The position numbers and the translations under genes are program-made. Source: an uncultured Candidatus Saccharibacteria bacterium (GTDB taxonomy: Bacteria; Patescibacteriota; Minisyncoccia; Sungbacterales; HO2-52-23). From it: DNA of 64,000 nt. The stretch is from positions 23,169 through 87,168 of the forward strand of contig CAZPDF010000004.1 in assembly GCA_964585475.1 (NCBI GenBank), given 5' to 3'. Each line of letters begins with the position of its first letter. Position 1 is the first letter of the stretch. Of this stretch, positions 14 through 62,488 are shown piece by piece. The notes under the pieces are model-generated. The model was not told where the DNA came from, did no database searches, and saw only the letters and a program-made list of their open reading frames with translations.

Positions 14-115
14 ATTCATCCCGCTAAAGATAAGAGGAAAACTGTGTCGGCCAGAATATTGCCAATGGCCGGAAGCGAAGAACCCCATCCTTATTTAATC
101 TAAATCTCTAACGGG
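14..115 (-). repeat. degenerate copy of the TCTAACGGGA inverted-pair intergenic element
   Basis: CCCGCTAAAGA (20-30) and TCTCTAACGGG (104-115) in inverted orientation ~73 bp apart; downstream of GH13 gene stop. Confidence 0.3.
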
Positions 116-161
116 ACTCATGCCAAGAGCAAATTTTACATCGGGTTTTACGTAAAGGCGA

Positions 162-5400: not shown

Positions 5401-6474
5401 CTAGATTTTTCCGGAAAATTTTAGAAGCAGAGTCAAAATCTTTGCTTGCCAATTGAAAAAGATTAACGCCACCATAAACAATATCAGTAGCGATGCGTAT
5501 GCCGCATGCAGGAGATGCTGTTTTCTTACCTCAACCGCTACGGCAAGCAGGAATGAGGCGGAAACAACCGCTCCAAGCAGGAAATAAAGCATCCCGAGGA
5601 TCTTCCCGGGCGAGACAATAAGCCGTTCAATGAAAGAGGCATATCGCAAGACGGGCAAAGGAGAAACTAGCGGAGAAATCTCATTTTCAGCGCTCTCCAG
5701 AACTTTCATCACGATAAGCGATTCGTCTTCATAAACTTTTTTAATACCCTCCTTGAGATTCACGTTCACCCCGTTACTGCTTGCAGTAACGGGGCCCACC
5801 GCCTCTCCCGCAACCCGCAACTCTTCCGCCCCATTCGCTTTAGCTGGAATGGTCTCAACCACAGTTTTTGCCAACTCCGGAAGAGGATCCGCCGTTGTTT
5901 GGACAAAGGGAAGAAACGGATGGCCAAACATCTGGACCACAAATAATGTCTCTTTTCCCTGGTAATTACCTCGCGCAGCCGCAATGCCAATTTCGGTGAA
6001 TTTATAGCCCAAAATGTTTGCACGATGTCTAGGAGAATTGAGCCATGCCTTGTTCACCGCTCCGGAGTCCACGAAATCCACCGCCAGATTCTCCCCTGCC
6101 GCGGAAAATAGATATCCGGCCTCGCCAAACCAATGCCACGGCGTAAGGCCGTCCGGGCTAGTATGGGAGAAATATCCGTTTTTAGCCATGTCTTCTGCTT
6201 TGAGCAGGGCCGCTTTTTCAAGAAGCGAATTTATTTTAAGCGGCGCAAGACCGTTTTCCTCTCTGCTTTCATTTGTAAAATCAACCAAAACCCGAGGAAG
6301 AATCGCGGCGGTTAGATCCAACCGGCTCAAGAGAACGGACTGAAAACTCGTTCCGATAAGGAGCAGGACAGCAACAATTGAAAGCCGGAAAATGCTTGCC
6401 CTTCTTAGTAAATGCGGCTGGTATTCATTTGCTTCATGCGGAATAAAATATTTTCGCAGAATTCTCTTGTTCAT
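5401..6474 (-). CDS. CAP/SCP (PR-1-like) domain protein, membrane anchored
   Basis: 357 aa; N-terminal TM; CAP-like region NGYFSHTSPDG..GENLA....AWLNSPRHRANIL; C-terminal TM helices. Confidence 0.6.
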   Translation of the reverse strand: MNKRILRKYFIPHEANEYQPHLLRRASIFRLSIVAVLLLIGTSFQSVLLSRLDLTAAILPRVLVDFTNESREENGLAPLKINSLLEKAALLKAEDMAKNGYFSHTSPDGLTPWHWFGEAGYLFSAAGENLAVDFVDSGAVNKAWLNSPRHRANILGYKFTEIGIAAARGNYQGKETLFVVQMFGHPFLPFVQTTADPLPELAKTVVETIPAKANGAEELRVAGEAVGPVTASSNGVNVNLKEGIKKVYEDESLIVMKVLESAENEISPLVSPLPVLRYASFIERLIVSPGKILGMLYFLLGAVVSASFLLAVAVEVRKQHLLHAAYASLLILFMVALIFFNWQAKILTLLLKFSGKI

Positions 6475-18220: not shown

Positions 18221-18281
18221 CTCCCCGGGTAGGGATCGAACCTACGACCGTCGCCTTAACAGGGCGCCGCTCTTCCGGGGC
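18221..18281 (-). pseudogene. tRNA-Asn(GTT)-like, 61 nt, lacks D-arm (probable tRNA pseudogene or fragment)
   Basis: Acceptor GCCCCGG/CCGGGGA, anticodon loop CTGTTAA, T-arm GGTTCGATCCC present; ~11 nt of D-stem/D-loop absent relative to the neighbouring tRNA-Asn. Confidence 0.45.
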
Positions 18282-18302
18282 AACTTTCGTTTCGATTCAA
18301 AC

Positions 18303-18374
18303 CTCCGGCGGCAGGATTCGAACCTGCGACCATCTCCTTAACAGGGAGCCGCTCTACCGCTGAGCTACGCCGGA
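18303..18374 (-). tRNA. tRNA-Asn (anticodon GTT)
   Basis: Manual fold: acceptor TCCGGCG/CGCCGGA; D-arm TAGCTCAGCGGTAGAGC; anticodon loop CTGTTAA; T-arm GCAGGTTCGAATCCTGC; no encoded CCA. Confidence 0.8.
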
Positions 18375-54176: not shown

Positions 54177-57100
54177 CTATTGATCGGAAGTTCTTCTCCA
54201 GAAAAATTCAATGATGCTCGCAAAAAGTCCTCTCGGCGTGGAGGATGTTTGCGACTGGGTACCGGAGGGCATAAATTGCTTGCATGCCAGATCCTGGTAA
54301 TTTTTAGTGCAGTAAGACGTGCATTCTTCAGGAGTTTTGCAACCGCCCGGTCCGCTGAAGTCCGTCTGCGATGAACCAGAGCATTTGCCCTTACTACCAG
54401 CATTAAAGATGGTCTGGACTTCGGACGCGTTTAACGCCCTGTTGTATACGGAGGCCTCATCAATCAAGCCGGAGAAAAATTCAGTGCTACTCCGCCATGA
54501 CCCGAGCGTAAACGGATCATCGCTCGTTGATTGTGTATTTGGAGCCTGCCGAAGGATAGTTCCCCGCGACTCGCCATCCACATATAATTTGACGTTGCCA
54601 GAACCATCTTTCGTGCCAACGGCATGATGCCAAACTCCCGAACTAACAGGCGCGGTAACGATGGTCTGACCTTCAGCTTTGGTAGTTTCTCCAACAGAAA
54701 ATTCCAATGTTCCATTACCTACCCTAAGCCAGTATCCCGATCCGGGGCCGCTTGAAGGATAGTTTGATTTTCGGATGATGTTATTTACGGATGATCCACC
54801 ACCCCAATGAAACCAGGCTTCCAAAGAAAATGGTCCGGTCCCGAAATTTAGATTCGCGGGATTTCCGATATTGACGCTACCCGCATTAAATTTGAGCGCA
54901 TTCCCTACTTTTCCGTCGTCAGCGATAGCGGCCCCACCAGAGAGAGTCCCGCTATTTCCATCAGCACTGTCTGACGCACTTGCGTCCCCCTTCCACCAAC
55001 TGACTAAACCTGAAGGCACCGGGGCGCAACTTTGAGTTGGAGGTGGTGGCGGAGGCGGCAGAATAGAGCACGCTGCAAATTCACAGTTTGGCGCTACACG
55101 ACCAACACTACTTCCGTTAGGACACTGTTTTAGATCTTCGGGGCAAGCAAGGCCGCCTCCGTAAGCAACGCAGGCAGGATCGGTGTAGTGGGTTTGACAA
55201 TAAGCTTTACATTCGGCTTGGCTTAGGCAACCGCCTGGGCCTGGTTCACCGCCAGTGCTTCCTCCTCCGCCGATATAGGAAGCACAAACTGGATCAGTGT
55301 AATGGGCGGTACAATAAGCTATACATTCTTCTTTATTCGTGCAGCCACCAGGGCCATTAAAGCCGCCTCCCCCGCCAGACGGAGGTTGGAAACCTCCAGG
55401 CAATCCACCTGCTCCGCCAGGCGGCTGAAAGCCCTTGCAAGCATCCGGATGTTCCTGACAATATGCTTTACATTCTTCTTGACTCTTGCATCCTCCAGGC
55501 CCGCCCGGGAATCCTCCACTTCCTCCTCCCGGAGGACCAAAACCTTCGCACTCTTCTTGATGGGCGGTGCAATACTCAATGCATTCTTCTGTATTTTTAC
55601 ATCCTCCCGGTCCGCTAAATCCCCCCTCGCCAAAATTACCTCCTCCACCTAACGATTGCTGTAGTTGCTCAAAACATCCTTCCAATGACTCAAAATTCAA
55701 ATCCTCGCCGAATTCCCCACTTTGGAGTTTCCGAAGCCCGTCTTCCCCAACCGCACCTTTAATGCACTCTACTGCTTCGGGTGGCAACTTGCTTAATTTT
55801 TGGCTTAAGTCGGCAGTCATCTGACCAAAGCAGGATTTCATTTTTCCTTCCATACCTCTGTCAAAAATCGGCTTGCCGTTCTTGATTTTCTCGAAATTTT
55901 CTTCGCCAAGAGCATCCTCAAGACATTGGACGACCTCGGGCGGCATTTTATCAAGATTTTCGCGGAACTGCTCCATTCCCTTGCTCATTCGTTCAAGGTC
56001 GGCTTCGCTCATTAGTCCATGTTCCTTGGCAAAATTGAAGCACTCCTCGGAATTTTCTTCACAATACGCCTCGCATTGCGTCTTGCTGTGGCATCCGCCC
56101 GGTCCTTTTCCTCCTACTTTTCTTACCATTTCGGCTTCTTCCGCCGTCATAACCCCGGCTTTTTCAGCAAAGGCAATGCACTCCTCTATATGATTATCTT
56201 CAGAACAGTAATTCTCGCATTGTTCTTTGGAGGTGCAGCCGCCCGGGCTCTCGCCCTGGCGCATCAAAACCATGAACTTCCTTGCCTCATCAATCTCTTC
56301 CTGAGGCATGAAGCCGCTTTTTTCGGCGAAATTCAAACACTCTTCCATGTGACTGGAATCACTGCAATAAATCTCGCAGGTGTTTCTGTCTTTACAACCG
56401 CCCGGGAACTGCGCGCCGGATTTTACCAATCCTTGAAATTTTCTAGCCTCGGCCAATTCGTCGCCGGAATAATAGCCGGTCTCCTCGGCAAAGGCGATGC
56501 ATTGATCAAGATGATCAATCGTATTGCAATAATTTTCGCAGGAAGACCAGGAGTTGCAGCCGCCGGGGCCATTTTTAATGTTCAGGAATTTATCAGCTGC
56601 TTCTTTGGATTCTTGTTCCGAAATCAAATTGTATTTTTTGGCAAACGCGAGACACTCTTTGGCGTGGTCAACATTATCACAATAGGAACGGCATTCGGCC
56701 TCGCTTTGACAATTTCCCAACTCGGGTACGGGGTATTGAATATCTTCTGCCGAAAGCGGTCCCTCTTTCTTCTCTTCTTGCGGAGGTGGAGGAGGCGGCG
56801 GAGGAGGCACTTCTTTTTTCACCGCGACACTTTTAGCTACTCCTTTAACAGGGGGGGAAATCTCAAGCTCGGTGGTATTGTTTTGACAATCAACAACATA
56901 GGCGGGCATCACCGGCGTAAAATCGGAGGGATCACGGAAGGATACGTTGTCGCTCACAAAAGATTTGCTGCAACCGCTCAACAACCCGCCGTAACGGAAT
57001 TGCTCTACCGGAGAAAGCGAAAACTCCTGAACGCCGTCGGGGTCTCTGATGGTTAAGGTAAATGCTTCGGAACCGGGGGGTTTTTTAAAATTTATTGAGG

Positions 57101-57209
57101 AATCATTGACGGCTGCCTCGACGTGGATGGTCGCCAAACTCAACAAAAAGGAAAGTACCAATATACTTGCGGCTAATAATTTCGTGGTTGTAATTGTCTT
57201 GGTATTCAT
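54177..57209 (-). CDS. secreted protein with ~8 tandem Cys-rich ~45-aa repeats, poly-Pro and Gly-rich linkers, and C-terminal LamG (concanavalin-A-like) domain
   Basis: 1010 aa; signal peptide; repeats GGC.S...CE.YC.......EC..FA...G; PPPPPPPPPQ; LamG-like region with LYVDG, VWHHAVG and LIDEASVYNRAL motifs. Confidence 0.65.
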   Translation of the reverse strand: MNTKTITTTKLLAASILVLSFLLSLATIHVEAAVNDSSINFKKPPGSEAFTLTIRDPDGVQEFSLSPVEQFRYGGLLSGCSKSFVSDNVSFRDPSDFTPVMPAYVVDCQNNTTELEISPPVKGVAKSVAVKKEVPPPPPPPPPQEEKKEGPLSAEDIQYPVPELGNCQSEAECRSYCDNVDHAKECLAFAKKYNLISEQESKEAADKFLNIKNGPGGCNSWSSCENYCNTIDHLDQCIAFAEETGYYSGDELAEARKFQGLVKSGAQFPGGCKDRNTCEIYCSDSSHMEECLNFAEKSGFMPQEEIDEARKFMVLMRQGESPGGCTSKEQCENYCSEDNHIEECIAFAEKAGVMTAEEAEMVRKVGGKGPGGCHSKTQCEAYCEENSEECFNFAKEHGLMSEADLERMSKGMEQFRENLDKMPPEVVQCLEDALGEENFEKIKNGKPIFDRGMEGKMKSCFGQMTADLSQKLSKLPPEAVECIKGAVGEDGLRKLQSGEFGEDLNFESLEGCFEQLQQSLGGGGNFGEGGFSGPGGCKNTEECIEYCTAHQEECEGFGPPGGGSGGFPGGPGGCKSQEECKAYCQEHPDACKGFQPPGGAGGLPGGFQPPSGGGGGFNGPGGCTNKEECIAYCTAHYTDPVCASYIGGGGSTGGEPGPGGCLSQAECKAYCQTHYTDPACVAYGGGLACPEDLKQCPNGSSVGRVAPNCEFAACSILPPPPPPPTQSCAPVPSGLVSWWKGDASASDSADGNSGTLSGGAAIADDGKVGNALKFNAGSVNIGNPANLNFGTGPFSLEAWFHWGGGSSVNNIIRKSNYPSSGPGSGYWLRVGNGTLEFSVGETTKAEGQTIVTAPVSSGVWHHAVGTKDGSGNVKLYVDGESRGTILRQAPNTQSTSDDPFTLGSWRSSTEFFSGLIDEASVYNRALNASEVQTIFNAGSKGKCSGSSQTDFSGPGGCKTPEECTSYCTKNYQDLACKQFMPSGTQSQTSSTPRGLFASIIEFFWRRTSDQ

Positions 57210-57309
57210 CCCGTTAGAAATTTAGGGCTAATTTTAATACTTATTTCGTCCAGCAAATAATCACTCATCGTACGCTCCATTAAAGACGGTGCCCCATCTC
57301 TAACGGGAT
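57207..57309 (-). repeat. TCTAACGGGA inverted-pair intergenic element
   Basis: CCCGTTAGAAA 57210-57220 abuts ATG 57209 of the LamG-protein gene; TCTCTAACGGG 57297-57307 lies 10 nt past the stop of the upstream gene; 75-bp spacer. Confidence 0.5.
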
Positions 57310-57317
57310 TCACGCCT

Positions 57318-59264: not shown

Positions 59265-59311
59265 ATTTTGGGCCTACGGCTAGCCCCGGAAAAGTCCATG
59301 GCTAAATTTTT

Positions 59312-59426
59312 ATCCCGTTAGAGGCAGATCGCGATCACGATAGCGCAATCTTTGTGTATTACTCCATAAATTCGACCTTGTATATTTTATTTATCCTGCA
59401 AGAAGCGATCGCGGCCTCTAACGGGA
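59312..59426 (-). repeat. TCTAACGGGA inverted-pair element with extended arms
   Basis: ATCCCGTTAGAGGCAGATCGCGATC (59312-59336) and GATCGCGGCCTCTAACGGGAT (59406-59426); ~20-bp imperfect inverted repeat, ~70-bp AT-rich spacer; ~50 nt upstream of the DUF559 gene start. Confidence 0.5.
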
Positions 59427-59469
59427 TTTATCCGGTGTGAGCGAACATAAGTTTTTTAAACTATTCTCC

Positions 59470-59607: not shown

Positions 59608-61419
59608 TTACCCTTTCCGACGGGCCCTTGAGCGCTCAACTTCGGTAAGATACTGCTTTCGCAAACGAACGCTTTGCGGAGTAATCTCAAGGTATTCATC
59701 CTCGGATATAATTTCAAGTCCGCGCTCGATCGTAAGCACAAATGGCGGAGTAAGATTGATCGCTTCGTCCGAACCGGAAGCACGCATATTCGTAAGCTGT
59801 TTACCTTTCGTCGGATTAACCCTCATTTCTTCTCCTTTTGACGTGTTACCGATCACCATTCCTTCATAAACTTCAATTTGCGAGCCTATGTAGAGCGTGC
59901 CGCGCTCCTGAAGCCCCCATAACGCATATCCCATGGCAACACCCTTTGCCATCGAGATCATTGAACCGACAGCGCGTTTATGAATTTCTCCGGCATACGG
60001 CTTAAAGCCGAGAACACGTGAGGCAAAAATACCCTCGCCTTTGGTATCAATCACAAATTGATTGCGATATCCAAGAATGCCTCTCGTCGGCCCCTCAAAA
60101 GACATCCGTACGGCCTCGCCTTTGTGAGAAATATTGTTTAAAACAAAGCCGCGGGACCCAATCCGCTTAATTATAACACCCTGGTATTCGCCGGGTATAT
60201 CAATAATTACCTCTTCAAACGGTTCGAGTTTCTTGCCATTTTCTTCACGAATTATGACTTGGGGTTGCGAAACTTGAAGCTCAAAACCGGCCCGCCGCAT
60301 ATTTTCAAGAAGGATTGCAATATGAAGCTCCCCTCTGCCCAACACCCGGAAGCTTTCCGAAGAACTAAAATCAATGCGAAGACCCACGTTTACTTCAAGT
60401 TCACGTTCAAGGTATTCCCGGAGTTGCCGAGAAGTCACGTACTTTCCTTCCCGCCCGGCAAATGGAGAATTATTCACCAAAAAATTCAGCGCAATAGTCG
60501 GCTCATCAACCGCGATTGCGGGCAAGGGTTTGGCATCCCGGTCAGTCGTAACCGTCTCACCAATATCAATATCGGGAAGTCCTGCCACAAGAATTATGTC
60601 GCCGGCACCCGCTTCAGCGGATTCTATTTTTTCGAGCCCCTTGAAAGTAAAAATCTTTGTAATTTTTCCGGAGCGAGTTTCACCATTCTGTTTTTTTACG
60701 AATACATCGGCCCCCGTCTTGGCGATACCTTCATATATTCTTCCAACCGCAAGCCGTCCCAAAAAATTATCATACCCCAAGTTAAACGGCTGGAGCTTTA
60801 AGGGTTTCTGGGCCAGCTCTTCAGATGACGCAGAAGGAATATGCGCGAGAATGGTATCGAGAAGCGGAGACAAATCATGTGATTCATCGGTGAGCTTTAA
60901 AGTCGCAATTCCTGCCCGGCCGTTAGCATAGACCACCGGAAAATCCGCTTGCTCATCATCGGCCCCGAGTTCGAGGAATAGTGCAAGCACTTCTTCTTCG
61001 CATCGTGCGGGGTCAGCGGCGGGCTTGTCTATTTTATTTATTATCACGATCGGCCTCAGCCCAAGTTCAAGAGATTTTTTTAAAACAAACCGGGTCTGGG
61101 GCATCGGGCCTTCTTGGGCGTCCACGACCAGAAGCACCGAGTCTATTGAACGAAGCACTCGCTCAACCTCGGATCCAAAATCGGCATGTCCCGGGGTATC
61201 GACAATATTAATCTTCGTCGAGACTCGCCCCGAGTTTATCGGGGGATAAAAAATCGCCGCATTTTTTGAATAAATAGTAATCCCGCGCTCAAGTTCCAGC
61301 GCGTTTGAATCCATTGAAACACCCTCTTTGGCAACACCGGTTTGCCGTAGCATCGCGTCAGTCAAAGTGGTTTTCCCATGATCCACATGGGCAATGATTG
61401 CAATGTTTCTTATTTCCAT
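59608..61419 (-). CDS. typA: translational GTPase TypA/BipA
   Basis: 603 aa; N-terminus MEIRNIAIIAHVDHGKTTLTD; EF-G-like domain order. Confidence 0.9.
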   Translation of the reverse strand: MEIRNIAIIAHVDHGKTTLTDAMLRQTGVAKEGVSMDSNALELERGITIYSKNAAIFYPPINSGRVSTKINIVDTPGHADFGSEVERVLRSIDSVLLVVDAQEGPMPQTRFVLKKSLELGLRPIVIINKIDKPAADPARCEEEVLALFLELGADDEQADFPVVYANGRAGIATLKLTDESHDLSPLLDTILAHIPSASSEELAQKPLKLQPFNLGYDNFLGRLAVGRIYEGIAKTGADVFVKKQNGETRSGKITKIFTFKGLEKIESAEAGAGDIILVAGLPDIDIGETVTTDRDAKPLPAIAVDEPTIALNFLVNNSPFAGREGKYVTSRQLREYLERELEVNVGLRIDFSSSESFRVLGRGELHIAILLENMRRAGFELQVSQPQVIIREENGKKLEPFEEVIIDIPGEYQGVIIKRIGSRGFVLNNISHKGEAVRMSFEGPTRGILGYRNQFVIDTKGEGIFASRVLGFKPYAGEIHKRAVGSMISMAKGVAMGYALWGLQERGTLYIGSQIEVYEGMVIGNTSKGEEMRVNPTKGKQLTNMRASGSDEAINLTPPFVLTIERGLEIISEDEYLEITPQSVRLRKQYLTEVERSRARRKG

Positions 61420-61518
61420 CCCGTTAGAAGTATACTCTTACTTACATCCCATAATAGAAGAATAAACCGATTTATTACCAAACCCATTAGAAAACTTCTA
61501 CTTAAACTTCTAACGGGG
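61417..61518 (-). repeat. TCTAACGGGA inverted-pair intergenic element
   Basis: CCCGTTAGAAG 61420-61430 abuts typA ATG 61419; CTTCTAACGGGG 61507-61518 abuts obg stop codon 61520-61522; 76-bp spacer. Confidence 0.5.
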
Positions 61519-61519
61519 T

Positions 61520-62488
61520 TCATGCGTATTTTTCTTTTATTAATTTGTTTAGAATTTTCTTTATTTTTACTATGCTGTCAAAATCATGGATTGAGAATAC
61601 ACCGGCTGGCACTTTCTTTTTTTTAAGTGCAGAGAGTTTCTTTTTCAGTTCAGCCGGCGGAACCATGTCGCTTTTTCCCAAAAATACATATTCCTTTTTT
61701 TTGAGAAGAGCTTTGTTATACATTCCGAGCTCTTGTCTGATGGTTTTATAATCTTTATGCGGATCCGGGGATTCGGCGGAAATAATATGAAAGAGAACTT
61801 TTGTCCGCTCAATATGGCGCAAAAACTTTATGCCGAGCCCCTTCCCGCCGGAAGCTCCTTCTACCAGGCCAGGAATATCAGCAAGGACAAGCTCGTAATA
61901 CACCCCTAAATTCGGCTCAAGCGTTGTGAATAAATAATTCGCCACTTTGCTTTTGGCGCGCGTCAATTCATTAAGAAGGCTCGATTTCCCAACATTAGGC
62001 AGACCTATCAGGCCGACATCGGCTATCAGCTTTAATTCAAGACGAAAAGTAAAGCTCTCACCCTGAGCTCCATATCTAAATTGTTTCGGCCTGGTATTCG
62101 TGGAGGAACGGAAATGAAAATTTCCCTTGCCTCCTCTTCCGCCCTTGGCCGCAAAAATGCGCTCGCCGATTGATACAATTTCCGTATCAACGCCGGTAGT
62201 AAGATTATGAATGATGGTTCCGACGGGCACAAGCAATATAAGGTCTTCCGCATCAGATCCGTCGCAAAATTGCCCCCGGCCGTCCTGGCCGTTTTTTGCG
62301 GGAAATTCTTTTTTGAAACGGTATGTTCGTAAAATGCCAAGGTCCGAAGAACTCTCAAAATAAACGCTTCCGCCGCTTCCCCCGGATCCTCCCGCCGGAC
62401 CGAATTGATTGAGATTCTTATTAAACGAAGTAGCACCTCTTCCTCCGTTTCCCGCCAACACCCTGATTGTAATGTCGTCTACAAACAT
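61520..62488 (-). CDS. obg: GTPase Obg/CgtA (short form without C-terminal extension)
   Basis: 322 aa; Gly-rich Obg fold (AGNGGRGATSF...GGSGGSGGS); G1 GLPNVGKSSLL. Confidence 0.85.
   Translation of the reverse strand: MFVDDITIRVLAGNGGRGATSFNKNLNQFGPAGGSGGSGGSVYFESSSDLGILRTYRFKKEFPAKNGQDGRGQFCDGSDAEDLILLVPVGTIIHNLTTGVDTEIVSIGERIFAAKGGRGGKGNFHFRSSTNTRPKQFRYGAQGESFTFRLELKLIADVGLIGLPNVGKSSLLNELTRAKSKVANYLFTTLEPNLGVYYELVLADIPGLVEGASGGKGLGIKFLRHIERTKVLFHIISAESPDPHKDYKTIRQELGMYNKALLKKKEYVFLGKSDMVPPAELKKKLSALKKKKVPAGVFSIHDFDSIVKIKKILNKLIKEKYA

Follow-up and report, generated by a model that had tools for sequence, protein, structure and literature searches.

The genes obg and typA are neighbours on the minus strand of a 64,000-nt stretch of contig CAZPDF010000004.1 (hereafter the window), which derives from an uncultured Candidatus Saccharibacteria bacterium, and the gap between them holds a short element with inverted-repeat ends, termed E3. 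The minus strand is the sense strand of both genes, and E3 is read in that direction throughout. Its order is AAATACGC-ATGA-AC-CCCGTTAGAAG-(76 nt)-CTTCTAACGGG-ATGGAAATA, with the following components.

61522..61520, minus strand: stop codon TGA of obg, contained in the left target duplicate (ATGAAC, 61523..61518).
61517..61507, minus strand: 5' arm of E3, CCCGTTAGAAG, the terminal inverted repeat (TIR); C61518 extends the arm to CCCCG.
61506..61431, minus strand: interior of E3, 76 nt, A/T-rich.
61491..61483, minus strand: partial copy of the 3' arm inside the interior, UCUAAUGGG.
61430..61420, minus strand: 3' arm of E3, CTTCTAACGGG; one of its frames contains UAA, and a second leads into GGAUGx.
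61419..61417, minus strand: start codon ATG of typA, flush with the 3' arm and part of the right target duplicate (ATGGA).
61523..61410, minus strand: small open reading frame (mini-ORF) MNPVRSLSRSFLMGLVINRFILLLWDVSKSILLTGWK, 37 codons, its ATG overlapping the obg TGA as ATGA.

The intergenic gap is bridged by this 37-codon ORF, which overlaps both the obg stop and the typA start. Its own stop, TAA at 61412..61410, falls 7 nt inside typA because typA begins ATGG and not ATGA. The original prediction described the element as spanning exactly from the obg stop to the typA start; the coordinates are right, and the span is exact to within 1–2 nt, the two bases A61519 and C61518 (AC) separating the stop codon from the strict arm. 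The typA start call is solid, as had been argued, because the N-terminus MEIRNIAIIAHVDHGKTT is conserved across 80 orthologues, every one of which begins ATGGA(A/G)AT. Annotation error does not explain the juxtaposition of arm and start codon.

The arms recur well beyond chance. Allowing at most one mismatch, the 11-mer arm occurs five times in the window, compared with 0.99 ± 1.04 times in shuffled sequence, and none of 100 shuffles reaches five. This excess, together with the occurrence of the family in at least 120 contigs (below), bears out the claim of a genuine repeated inverted-pair element. The folding behaviour anticipated for E3 was likewise recovered, in that the arm stem is the favoured closing structure (pair probabilities 0.98–0.999; fold z-score −3.4; 0 of 200 shuffles fold as well). 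At the base of this stem the typA AUG is partly sequestered, with a pairing probability of 0.38–0.46. An alternative 5' hairpin that uses the internal third arm copy reaches −12.8 kcal/mol alone and is not populated at equilibrium.

E3 had been counted as the second copy of a repeat. It is indeed repeated, but the window holds four full copies, all on the minus (sense) strand and all in gaps between same-sense genes.

E1, 57309..57208 (57313..57206 with flanks), minus strand: left repeat GTGAAT at 57313..57308; arms at 57307..57299 and 57218..57210.
E2, 59427..59312 (59431..59308 with flanks), minus strand: left flank ATAAAT, right flank ATAAAA; arms ATCCCGTTAGAGGC and GCCTCTAACGGGAT.
E3, 61518..61420, minus strand: the obg-typA copy.
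E4, 117..20 (121..17 with flanks), minus strand: left repeat ATGAGT at 121..116; 5' arm at 115..107.

The conserved arms form the closing stem in all four, with z-scores of −5.0 (E1), −6.5 (E2), −3.4 (E3) and −2.2 (E4), and in three of the four the 3' arm ends exactly at an AUG. The E1 mini-ORF, 35 codons at 57313..57206, has a TGA end that overlaps the ATG (57209) of a gene for a 1010-aa secreted protein. E2 does not stand at a start codon, the next ATG lying 48 nt downstream, and its inner stem, CGCGATCGC/GTGATCGCG, is interrupted by a bulge of 4 nt. The 3' arm of E4, UUUAGCGGG at 28..20, has two G.U-compatible changes and is followed by an ATG (19..17) whose gene exits the window. The window copies have three imperfect arm pairs, each of them G.U when read on the sense strand (3:0 versus A.C). 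The 76-nt spacer of E3 is, as first reported, unrelated to those of the other copies, and the four interiors are mutually unrelated; subfamilies are nonetheless recognisable across genomes. Rfam 15 gave no match at any of the four window copies, either at the gathering score or at E<=10, and a promoter and terminator scan found none at 61417-61522.

The wider family was delineated by an exact arm-pattern scan of GTDB with one genome per species; loci fetched from other contigs carry L-numbers, L001 being on the same contig as the window. Element arms were found in at least 120 genome contigs, mostly from Patescibacteria (the candidate phyla radiation, CPR), before unrelated housekeeping genes. 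Among the matches listed, the CPR hosts are Saccharibacteria, Parcubacteria/Paceibacterota and Nomura-, Yanofsky-, Kaiser-, Jorgensen-, Zambryski-, Doudna-, Kerfeld-, Sungii-, Vogel-, Campbell- and Brenner-bacteria, and the non-CPR hosts are Omnitrophota, Planctomycetota, Elusimicrobia, WOR-3, Firestonebacteria and Thermodesulfobacteriota/Deltaproteobacteria, with one Chloroflexota metagenome-assembled genome (MAG) and two 'Gammaproteobacteria' MAGs besides. The 135 copies among these matches measure 77–118 bp, with a mode near 100. Downstream lie 148 Pfam families in 92 proteins (SSB, ClpP, ATP synthase, MreB, topoisomerase I, DNA ligase, hibernation factor, glycosyltransferases and TypA are examples), so the family is tied to no particular gene, and E3 is no signal peculiar to typA. 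Of 88 oriented copies, 69 have a right ATG that begins an ORF of 130 codons or more, and orientation relative to the gene is fixed, 26:1.

Placement differs between host groups. Copies abut a gene start in 76 of 96 CPR cases versus 8 of 22 outside the CPR (Fisher p = 1.7e-4), the remaining 14 of those 22 being at (A/G)TAAA sites; this distribution fits a target preference of AT(G/A)AA, with insertion at start codons best tolerated in hosts whose initiation is independent of the Shine-Dalgarno (SD) sequence. Copy density amounts to 4 in 526 kb of unselected DNA from relatives versus 4 in the 64-kb window. Viruses were rejected as carriers: the element turned up in just 6 of 2.9 million viral contigs, 5 of these representing one phage locus. 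No prior description of the element family was found in the literature; the repeat is apparently unreported, a new family of a known type of element.

Several variant copies were encountered in the fetched loci. In an SD-using planctomycete (Planctomycetaceae MAG, L042:6200-6289) the 3' end of the element is duplicated in tandem within it, and the duplicate includes AAGGAG, an SD-like motif located just upstream of the 3' arm and 12 nt before the regenerated ATG. Solo 3' arms flush with an ATG, about 20 nt past the stop of the upstream gene, occur at L044:2040 and L105:6255 and look like copies that lost their interior but kept what the start codon requires. At L001:3572-3605 the arms occur as a short single hairpin, CCCCGTTAGAGagtaaaCCCCTAACGGGG, in frame within a 123-aa ORF with transmembrane and helix-turn-helix segments, and similar short units are present in L202 and L133.

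Across the family the arm consensus extends to CCCGTTAGARRT...AYYTCTAACGGG, a 12-bp TIR whose stem comprises nine invariant and three covarying pairs. Stem positions 10–12 vary yet pair in 130, 128 and 125 of the 135 copies, through several pair types, compared with means of 109, 87 and 78 (maxima 116, 97 and 87) for shuffled partners. Compensatory double changes are also seen in the inner stem of an E2-type subfamily, which reads CGCGAT.C/G.ATCGCG, CGCGGA.C/G.TCCGCG or CGCGGT.C/G.ACCGCG. Stem covariation and these double changes together indicate that the hairpin itself has been kept, not just the end sequence. The E2-type subfamily, recognised by its inner CGCG-NN-C stem, consists of E2 (59312-59427) and 12 other loci, among them L019, L029, L041, L043, L048, L057, L067, L070, L093, L106 and L129. 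In its 4-nt 3' bulge, the leading two bases repeat the variable stem dinucleotide (atct, tcct, acct), perhaps because of slipped alternative pairing, perhaps because an internal duplication occurred long ago.

The inverted repeat is in turn bracketed by a direct repeat, in the order ATGAA-T, CCCG...CGGG, ATGAA or, more generally, ATGXY-T, element, ATGXY. The flanks agree in one fixed register, at six of six positions in 19 of 135 copies and at five of six in 68, and in none of the other registers; the left-flank consensus, of 100, is A83 T80 G76 A73 A72 T95. The repeat follows the host gene and not a fixed sequence: where the gene does not start ATGAA (30 copies), an exact ATGXY duplicate is present on the left in 18, or in 24 if the register may shift by ±1, whereas permutation gives 1.17 on average and never more than 5. 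The left repeat tracks the host gene's second codon (ATGGA, ATGAG, ATGCG, ATGTA, ATGCC and ATGGG, among others), and copies away from genes show duplicates of ATAAA, ATCAA or ATTGA. Several of the latter differ between sides at the base just outside a 4-bp core, and E1 and L119 pair a left GTG with a right ATG, both of which fit a 4-bp duplication (TGAA/TAAA) around an element with ends T...A. As at obg, the left repeat supplies the TGA that terminates the upstream gene in at least 11 other copies. Because this flanking target-site duplication (TSD) contains ATG, the abutment of arms on start codons is explained. Tandem full copies occur at L008:7673-7895 and L067:6504-6722 with only 5–6 nt of duplicated target (ATGAAT) between them, exactly ATGAAT in L008, which suggests re-insertion into a regenerated site.

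Comparison of 80 typA orthologue loci (L122-L201; 66–80 % identity) provides a view of the same site in relatives. Here obg lies within 3 kb upstream of typA in three loci and is adjacent to it in none; the obg-typA junction is lineage-specific. The original prediction was open to refutation by orthologous obg-typA junctions that lack a paired motif. Such a junction is never met in these loci, about 76 of the 80 typA starts are empty, and a paired motif stands at few. The element is found at the typA ATG in the window, in L187 (perfect arms), in L137 (one inserted base) and, decayed, in L154; in most orthologues a terminator-like GC hairpin and T-run lead directly into ATGGAAAT, with no leader. 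Each element-bearing TypA has closer relatives that lack the element: the TypA of L187 is 86 % identical to those of the empty L199 and L194, and the eight nearest relatives of the window TypA are all empty. Such patchy presence points to repeated gain or loss at the same nucleotide, and a non-conserved junction combined with mostly empty starts argues against a conserved typA regulator and for mobile insertion. A DEAD-box helicase gene in L129 similarly carries a copy with a perfect duplication (ATGAAT on the left, ATGAAC on the right), and the orthologous genes of L142 and L155 lack it. As obg and typA are neighbours in this lineage alone, their junction may, speculatively, have arisen by rearrangement at an element copy.

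The absence of an SD sequence between E3 and typA was also reported at the outset. That observation stands, but its status as a special feature does not: SD sequences are nearly absent from the genes of the window, many of which have a TATAAT-like box 7–12 nt before the ATG, suggesting from sequence that leaderless mRNAs are widespread in this lineage. In an SD-poor, leaderless-like genome a missing SD before typA is therefore the norm. The TATAAT-like boxes, sometimes TGn-extended and often about 7–10 nt from the ATG, are seen for instance at the genes at 6474 (minus), 1427 (plus) and 1406 (minus) and also in L142, L155 and L199. Loss of the anti-SD motif has been reported for about half of Parcubacteria (PMC9297842).

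Promoter-like signals in the family are associated with the left ATG. In a set of 65 copies, −10-like boxes (strict definition) stand 6–8 nt before the left ATG in 16, versus 0–2 at any other spacing, and TANNNT occurs 5–10 nt before it in 28, versus 12 and 9 in control windows; no −10-like peak precedes the right ATG. In L129, TGtTATGAT is followed by 7 nt and the left ATG, a spacing equal to that in the empty orthologues. The placement of the boxes and the L129 spacing indicate that the left ATG is the ancestral, leaderless-type start. An SD sequence lies upstream of the left ATG in just 5 of 88 copies, on which ground juxtaposition of an SD by the hairpin was rejected, and no conserved promoter or SD was found family-wide at constant spacing from the ATG inside the element.

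The frame opened by the left ATG is also unusually free of stops. Interior stops are absent from it in 23 of 62 copies, compared with 5 of 62 in each of the other two frames and with 6.3 ± 2.3 (maximum 12) for shuffled interiors. The N-terminus of the mini-ORF, M-N/S-P-V-R, is encoded by the duplicate and the 5' arm, while its interior is not conserved. It ends at a UAA in the 3' arm 4 nt before the AUG (14 copies), by AUGA overlap (8) or by in-frame fusion (2). Judged from these arrangements, the mini-ORF probably hands ribosomes on to the host gene; RNA-unfolding and scanning models of translational coupling are both established (PMC12548453).

Taken together, the evidence makes it probable that E3 is a copy of a ~100-bp non-autonomous mobile element, similar to miniature inverted-repeat transposable elements (MITEs), that inserts at start codons and carries a relay ORF like that of mycobacterial interspersed repetitive units (MIRUs). 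In keeping with the MITE definition (PMC3184786), TIRs surround a core, direct repeats flank them, and the 77–118 bp contain no transposase gene, the only ORFs within the element being non-conserved mini-ORFs. The element would have the structure T-CCCGTTAGARRT ... AYYTCTAACGGG-A, its 12-bp TIR closing a long hairpin with an interior free to vary. Insertion would occur at AT(G/A)AA-type sites, the element-less junction being predicted as ...GCATGGAAAT... or ...ATGAA..., and would duplicate 4–5 bp (TGAA/ATGAA). At a start-codon target, the duplicate, or the terminal A plus the duplicated TG, would rebuild ATG directly after the 3' arm; on this account the arm touches the typA ATG because target duplication regenerates the start codon. 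The left duplicate would in addition supply a TGA, used in E3 as the obg stop. With SD-poor hosts and leaderless-type starts, the ancestral left ATG may still initiate, and translation of the short ORF through the hairpin would unwind the stem. Termination at the 3'-arm stops, at UAA 4 nt before the AUG or at UGA overlapping it as AUGA, would then allow the ribosome to re-initiate on the host gene, via termination-reinitiation or RNA unfolding. For E3, the predicted relay runs from obg to the mini-ORF, through the ATGA overlap, and on to typA. The repeat family, the TIR, the covarying stem, the TSD, the patchy presence, the diversity of host genes, the open-frame enrichment and the −10 boxes placed for the left ATG are observed; from them we infer that the element transposes, that an enzyme moves it and that translation is coupled.

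A number of observations weigh against this interpretation. A search of ~1.5 Mb of loci revealed neither an autonomous element nor a transposase bounded by these ends; long-range arm pairs and orphan arms there proved to belong to distinct elements (L042, around ackA) or to truncated copies. Nor was a filled/empty pair with both flanks homologous found, the neighbours of E1, E2 and E3 not being conserved. The duplication is imperfect at typA: the left repeat of E3 is ATGAAC where typA has ATGGA, a mismatch at one position in five that creates the obg TGA, and the typA copies of L187 and L137 have lost the duplicate altogether. Arms that are perfectly conserved across phyla around unrelated interiors are unusual for a decaying MITE. 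This suggests extra selection on the arms, which may be for continued mobility, for hairpin-dependent expression or for both. Family-wide, G.U versus A.C counts are 7:4 and 2:2, which is not significant. Finally, E1 and E3 carry full mini-ORFs and E2 and E4 have no full relay ORF; with interior stops in 39 of 62 copies (~37 % keep the full ORF), coupling is not the sole route to expression.

In one alternative, the invariant arms are the recognition site of a dedicated regulatory RNA and no mobile element is involved, a reading we regard as unlikely. The invariance of the arms across phyla with varying interiors, the covarying stem, the fixed orientation relative to the gene, the partial sequestration of the typA AUG, the alternative hairpin that the third arm copy could form and the G.U bias among window copies are all compatible with it. 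It does not, however, account for the functional unrelatedness of the downstream genes, the co-varying flanking duplications, the patchy presence at typA among close relatives or the 14 of 22 non-CPR copies away from gene starts; Rfam is silent even at E<=10, and G.U versus A.C counts for the whole family do not reach significance. An RNA-processing cassette, in which an RNase III-like cut at the hairpin base would yield a typA mRNA starting at or close to the AUG and translated as leaderless, could coexist with a mobile origin and would suit a long stable stem, a 3' arm that ends exactly at the AUG in three window copies and a leaderless-looking host genome, yet it does not predict the enrichment of open left-ATG frames, and stems of only 12–14 bp before the first bulge are short for RNase III. 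We give it a low probability. A chance inverted repeat or an obg transcription terminator, for which only the position directly after a stop codon and the stable fold speak, is extremely improbable given a motif frequency far above that of shuffles, identical arms in so many contigs, a loop of ~70 nt with no U-tract, and a terminator scan that finds none at the site.

Mobilisation by a different route is conceivable. A hairpin of the repetitive extragenic palindrome (REP/REPIN) type, or a palindrome-associated transposable element (PATE) derived from IS200/IS605, could be moved as single-stranded DNA by a Y1 HUH transposase (RAYT/TnpA). Paired inverted short repeats that form a long hairpin around a less conserved spacer are REPIN-like, compensatory changes that preserve the hairpin suit a single-stranded intermediate, short single-hairpin versions exist (L001:3572-3605; L202), and an IS200-type Y1 transposase gene is on the same contig (L001:1207-1683). 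Y1 elements, by contrast, insert with no TSD, whereas the family described here has a co-varying 4–5 bp duplication; IS200/IS605 ends are asymmetric subterminal hairpins, unlike these symmetric terminal repeats; the end hairpins of the L001 IS200 copy, CCCCGCAC...GTGCGGGG, are not those of the element; and no Y1 gene flanked by element arms (CCCGTTAGA hairpins) was seen in the loci searched. This route therefore appears rather improbable. The IS200 copy itself, at L001:1140-1730, lies ~8 kb beyond the right end of the window, encodes a 158-aa IS200-type Y1 transposase and splits an AAA_15/OLD-family nuclease gene; its left end hairpin is also followed by ATGAATG. Integron attC sites, which on the cassette strand have the order R'' RYYYAAC ... 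R' GTTRRRY and occur in arrays, were rejected, the core order here being reversed on both strands (GTTAGAR first, YTCTAAC last) and the copies scattered and not arrayed. Bulge-helix-bulge introns, retrons and ribozymes were rejected on anatomy, with no bulge-helix-bulge, no reverse transcriptase and no conserved core. The termini may resemble the ends of IS1380/piggyBac elements (CC..TAGA, 4–5 bp A/T-rich TSD).

Among the known systems closest to the start-codon MITE-like element proposed here are MIRUs (Supply et al. 1997, via PMC12548453 and PMC3184786), intergenic repeats of 40–100 bp that appear to be mobile. They are described as 'insert[ing] themselves at start codons', and their coupled ORF has a spacing of −4 (PMC12548453). 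In both cases a small ORF overlaps its neighbours (−4, ATGA) and, by analogy, coupling would preserve host expression; filled sites have direct repeats (a tetranucleotide in MIRUs), and tandem copies occur. MIRUs are found in GC-rich Mycobacterium and have imperfect TIRs, whereas the present element belongs to CPR and other uncultured phyla, and its perfect 12-bp TIR, conserved across phyla, closes a ~100-nt hairpin. In further contrast to MIRUs, only ~37 % of its copies have the full ORF, and its hosts are SD-poor and leaderless. The likeness drawn here concerns organisation, and sequence homology is unexpected given the different hosts and composition.

Bacterial MITEs (Correia/CREE, RUP, Nezha and ERIC; PMC3184786) share with the element TIRs, a non-coding core, a TSD, a length under 200 bp, an RNA-level stem-loop, several copies per genome and, apparently, filled as well as empty sites. 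They differ in that no cognate insertion sequence was found for the element in ~1.5 Mb, that its interiors are unrelated within one genome while its termini are identical across phyla, and that it has a strong start-codon bias with a regenerated ATG. REPINs and REP sequences likewise consist of two inverted short conserved repeats that form an extragenic hairpin with a less conserved spacer, but have no TSD and are tied to a REP-flanked RAYT gene, where the element has a duplication and no such gene was seen. Neisseria REP2 (PMC3184786) also lies immediately before many genes and supplies their ATG; it has no TIRs, carries a promoter and ribosome-binding site and serves a co-regulated gene set, in contrast to an element with no conserved promoter or SD and with unrelated host genes.

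Two further observations concern other features of the window. The host gene of E1 (54177-57209, minus strand) encodes a 1010-aa secreted protein with a C-terminal Laminin_G_3 domain and many repeats of a Cys-rich ~45-aa module (..GGC.s.eEC..YC..). At 18221-18374 (minus strand) there are two adjacent tRNA matches, the second of which (18221-18281) is 61 nt long and scores 30.6 versus the Rfam threshold of 29 bits.

The immediate consequence of these results is that the juxtaposition of arm and start codon is accounted for with no new kind of initiation signal. Annotation pipelines will meet the family in thousands of CPR, Omnitrophota and Planctomycetota MAGs, where awareness of it limits mis-called starts and spurious small ORFs. 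The MIRU strategy of start-codon insertion with a coupled mini-ORF would be extended to SD-poor, leaderless lineages, which offer many natural constructs for studying how ribosomes terminate and re-initiate across a stable hairpin. That distant phyla share identical 12-bp termini implies either a common mobilising enzyme or horizontal spread. A more ambitious reading, which we advance tentatively and place somewhat short of an even chance, is that of a cross-phylum hairpin MITE family specialised for leaderless start codons. It would jointly entail an ATG rebuilt from the terminal A and a duplicated TG, arms that evolved stops in two frames (UAA, and UGA overlapping AUG) and so relay the ribosome from the old 5' AUG, and copies that promote rearrangements creating junctions such as obg-typA. 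If true, the family would constitute a natural experiment on SD-independent re-initiation in the CPR and would point to a transposase shared across phyla.

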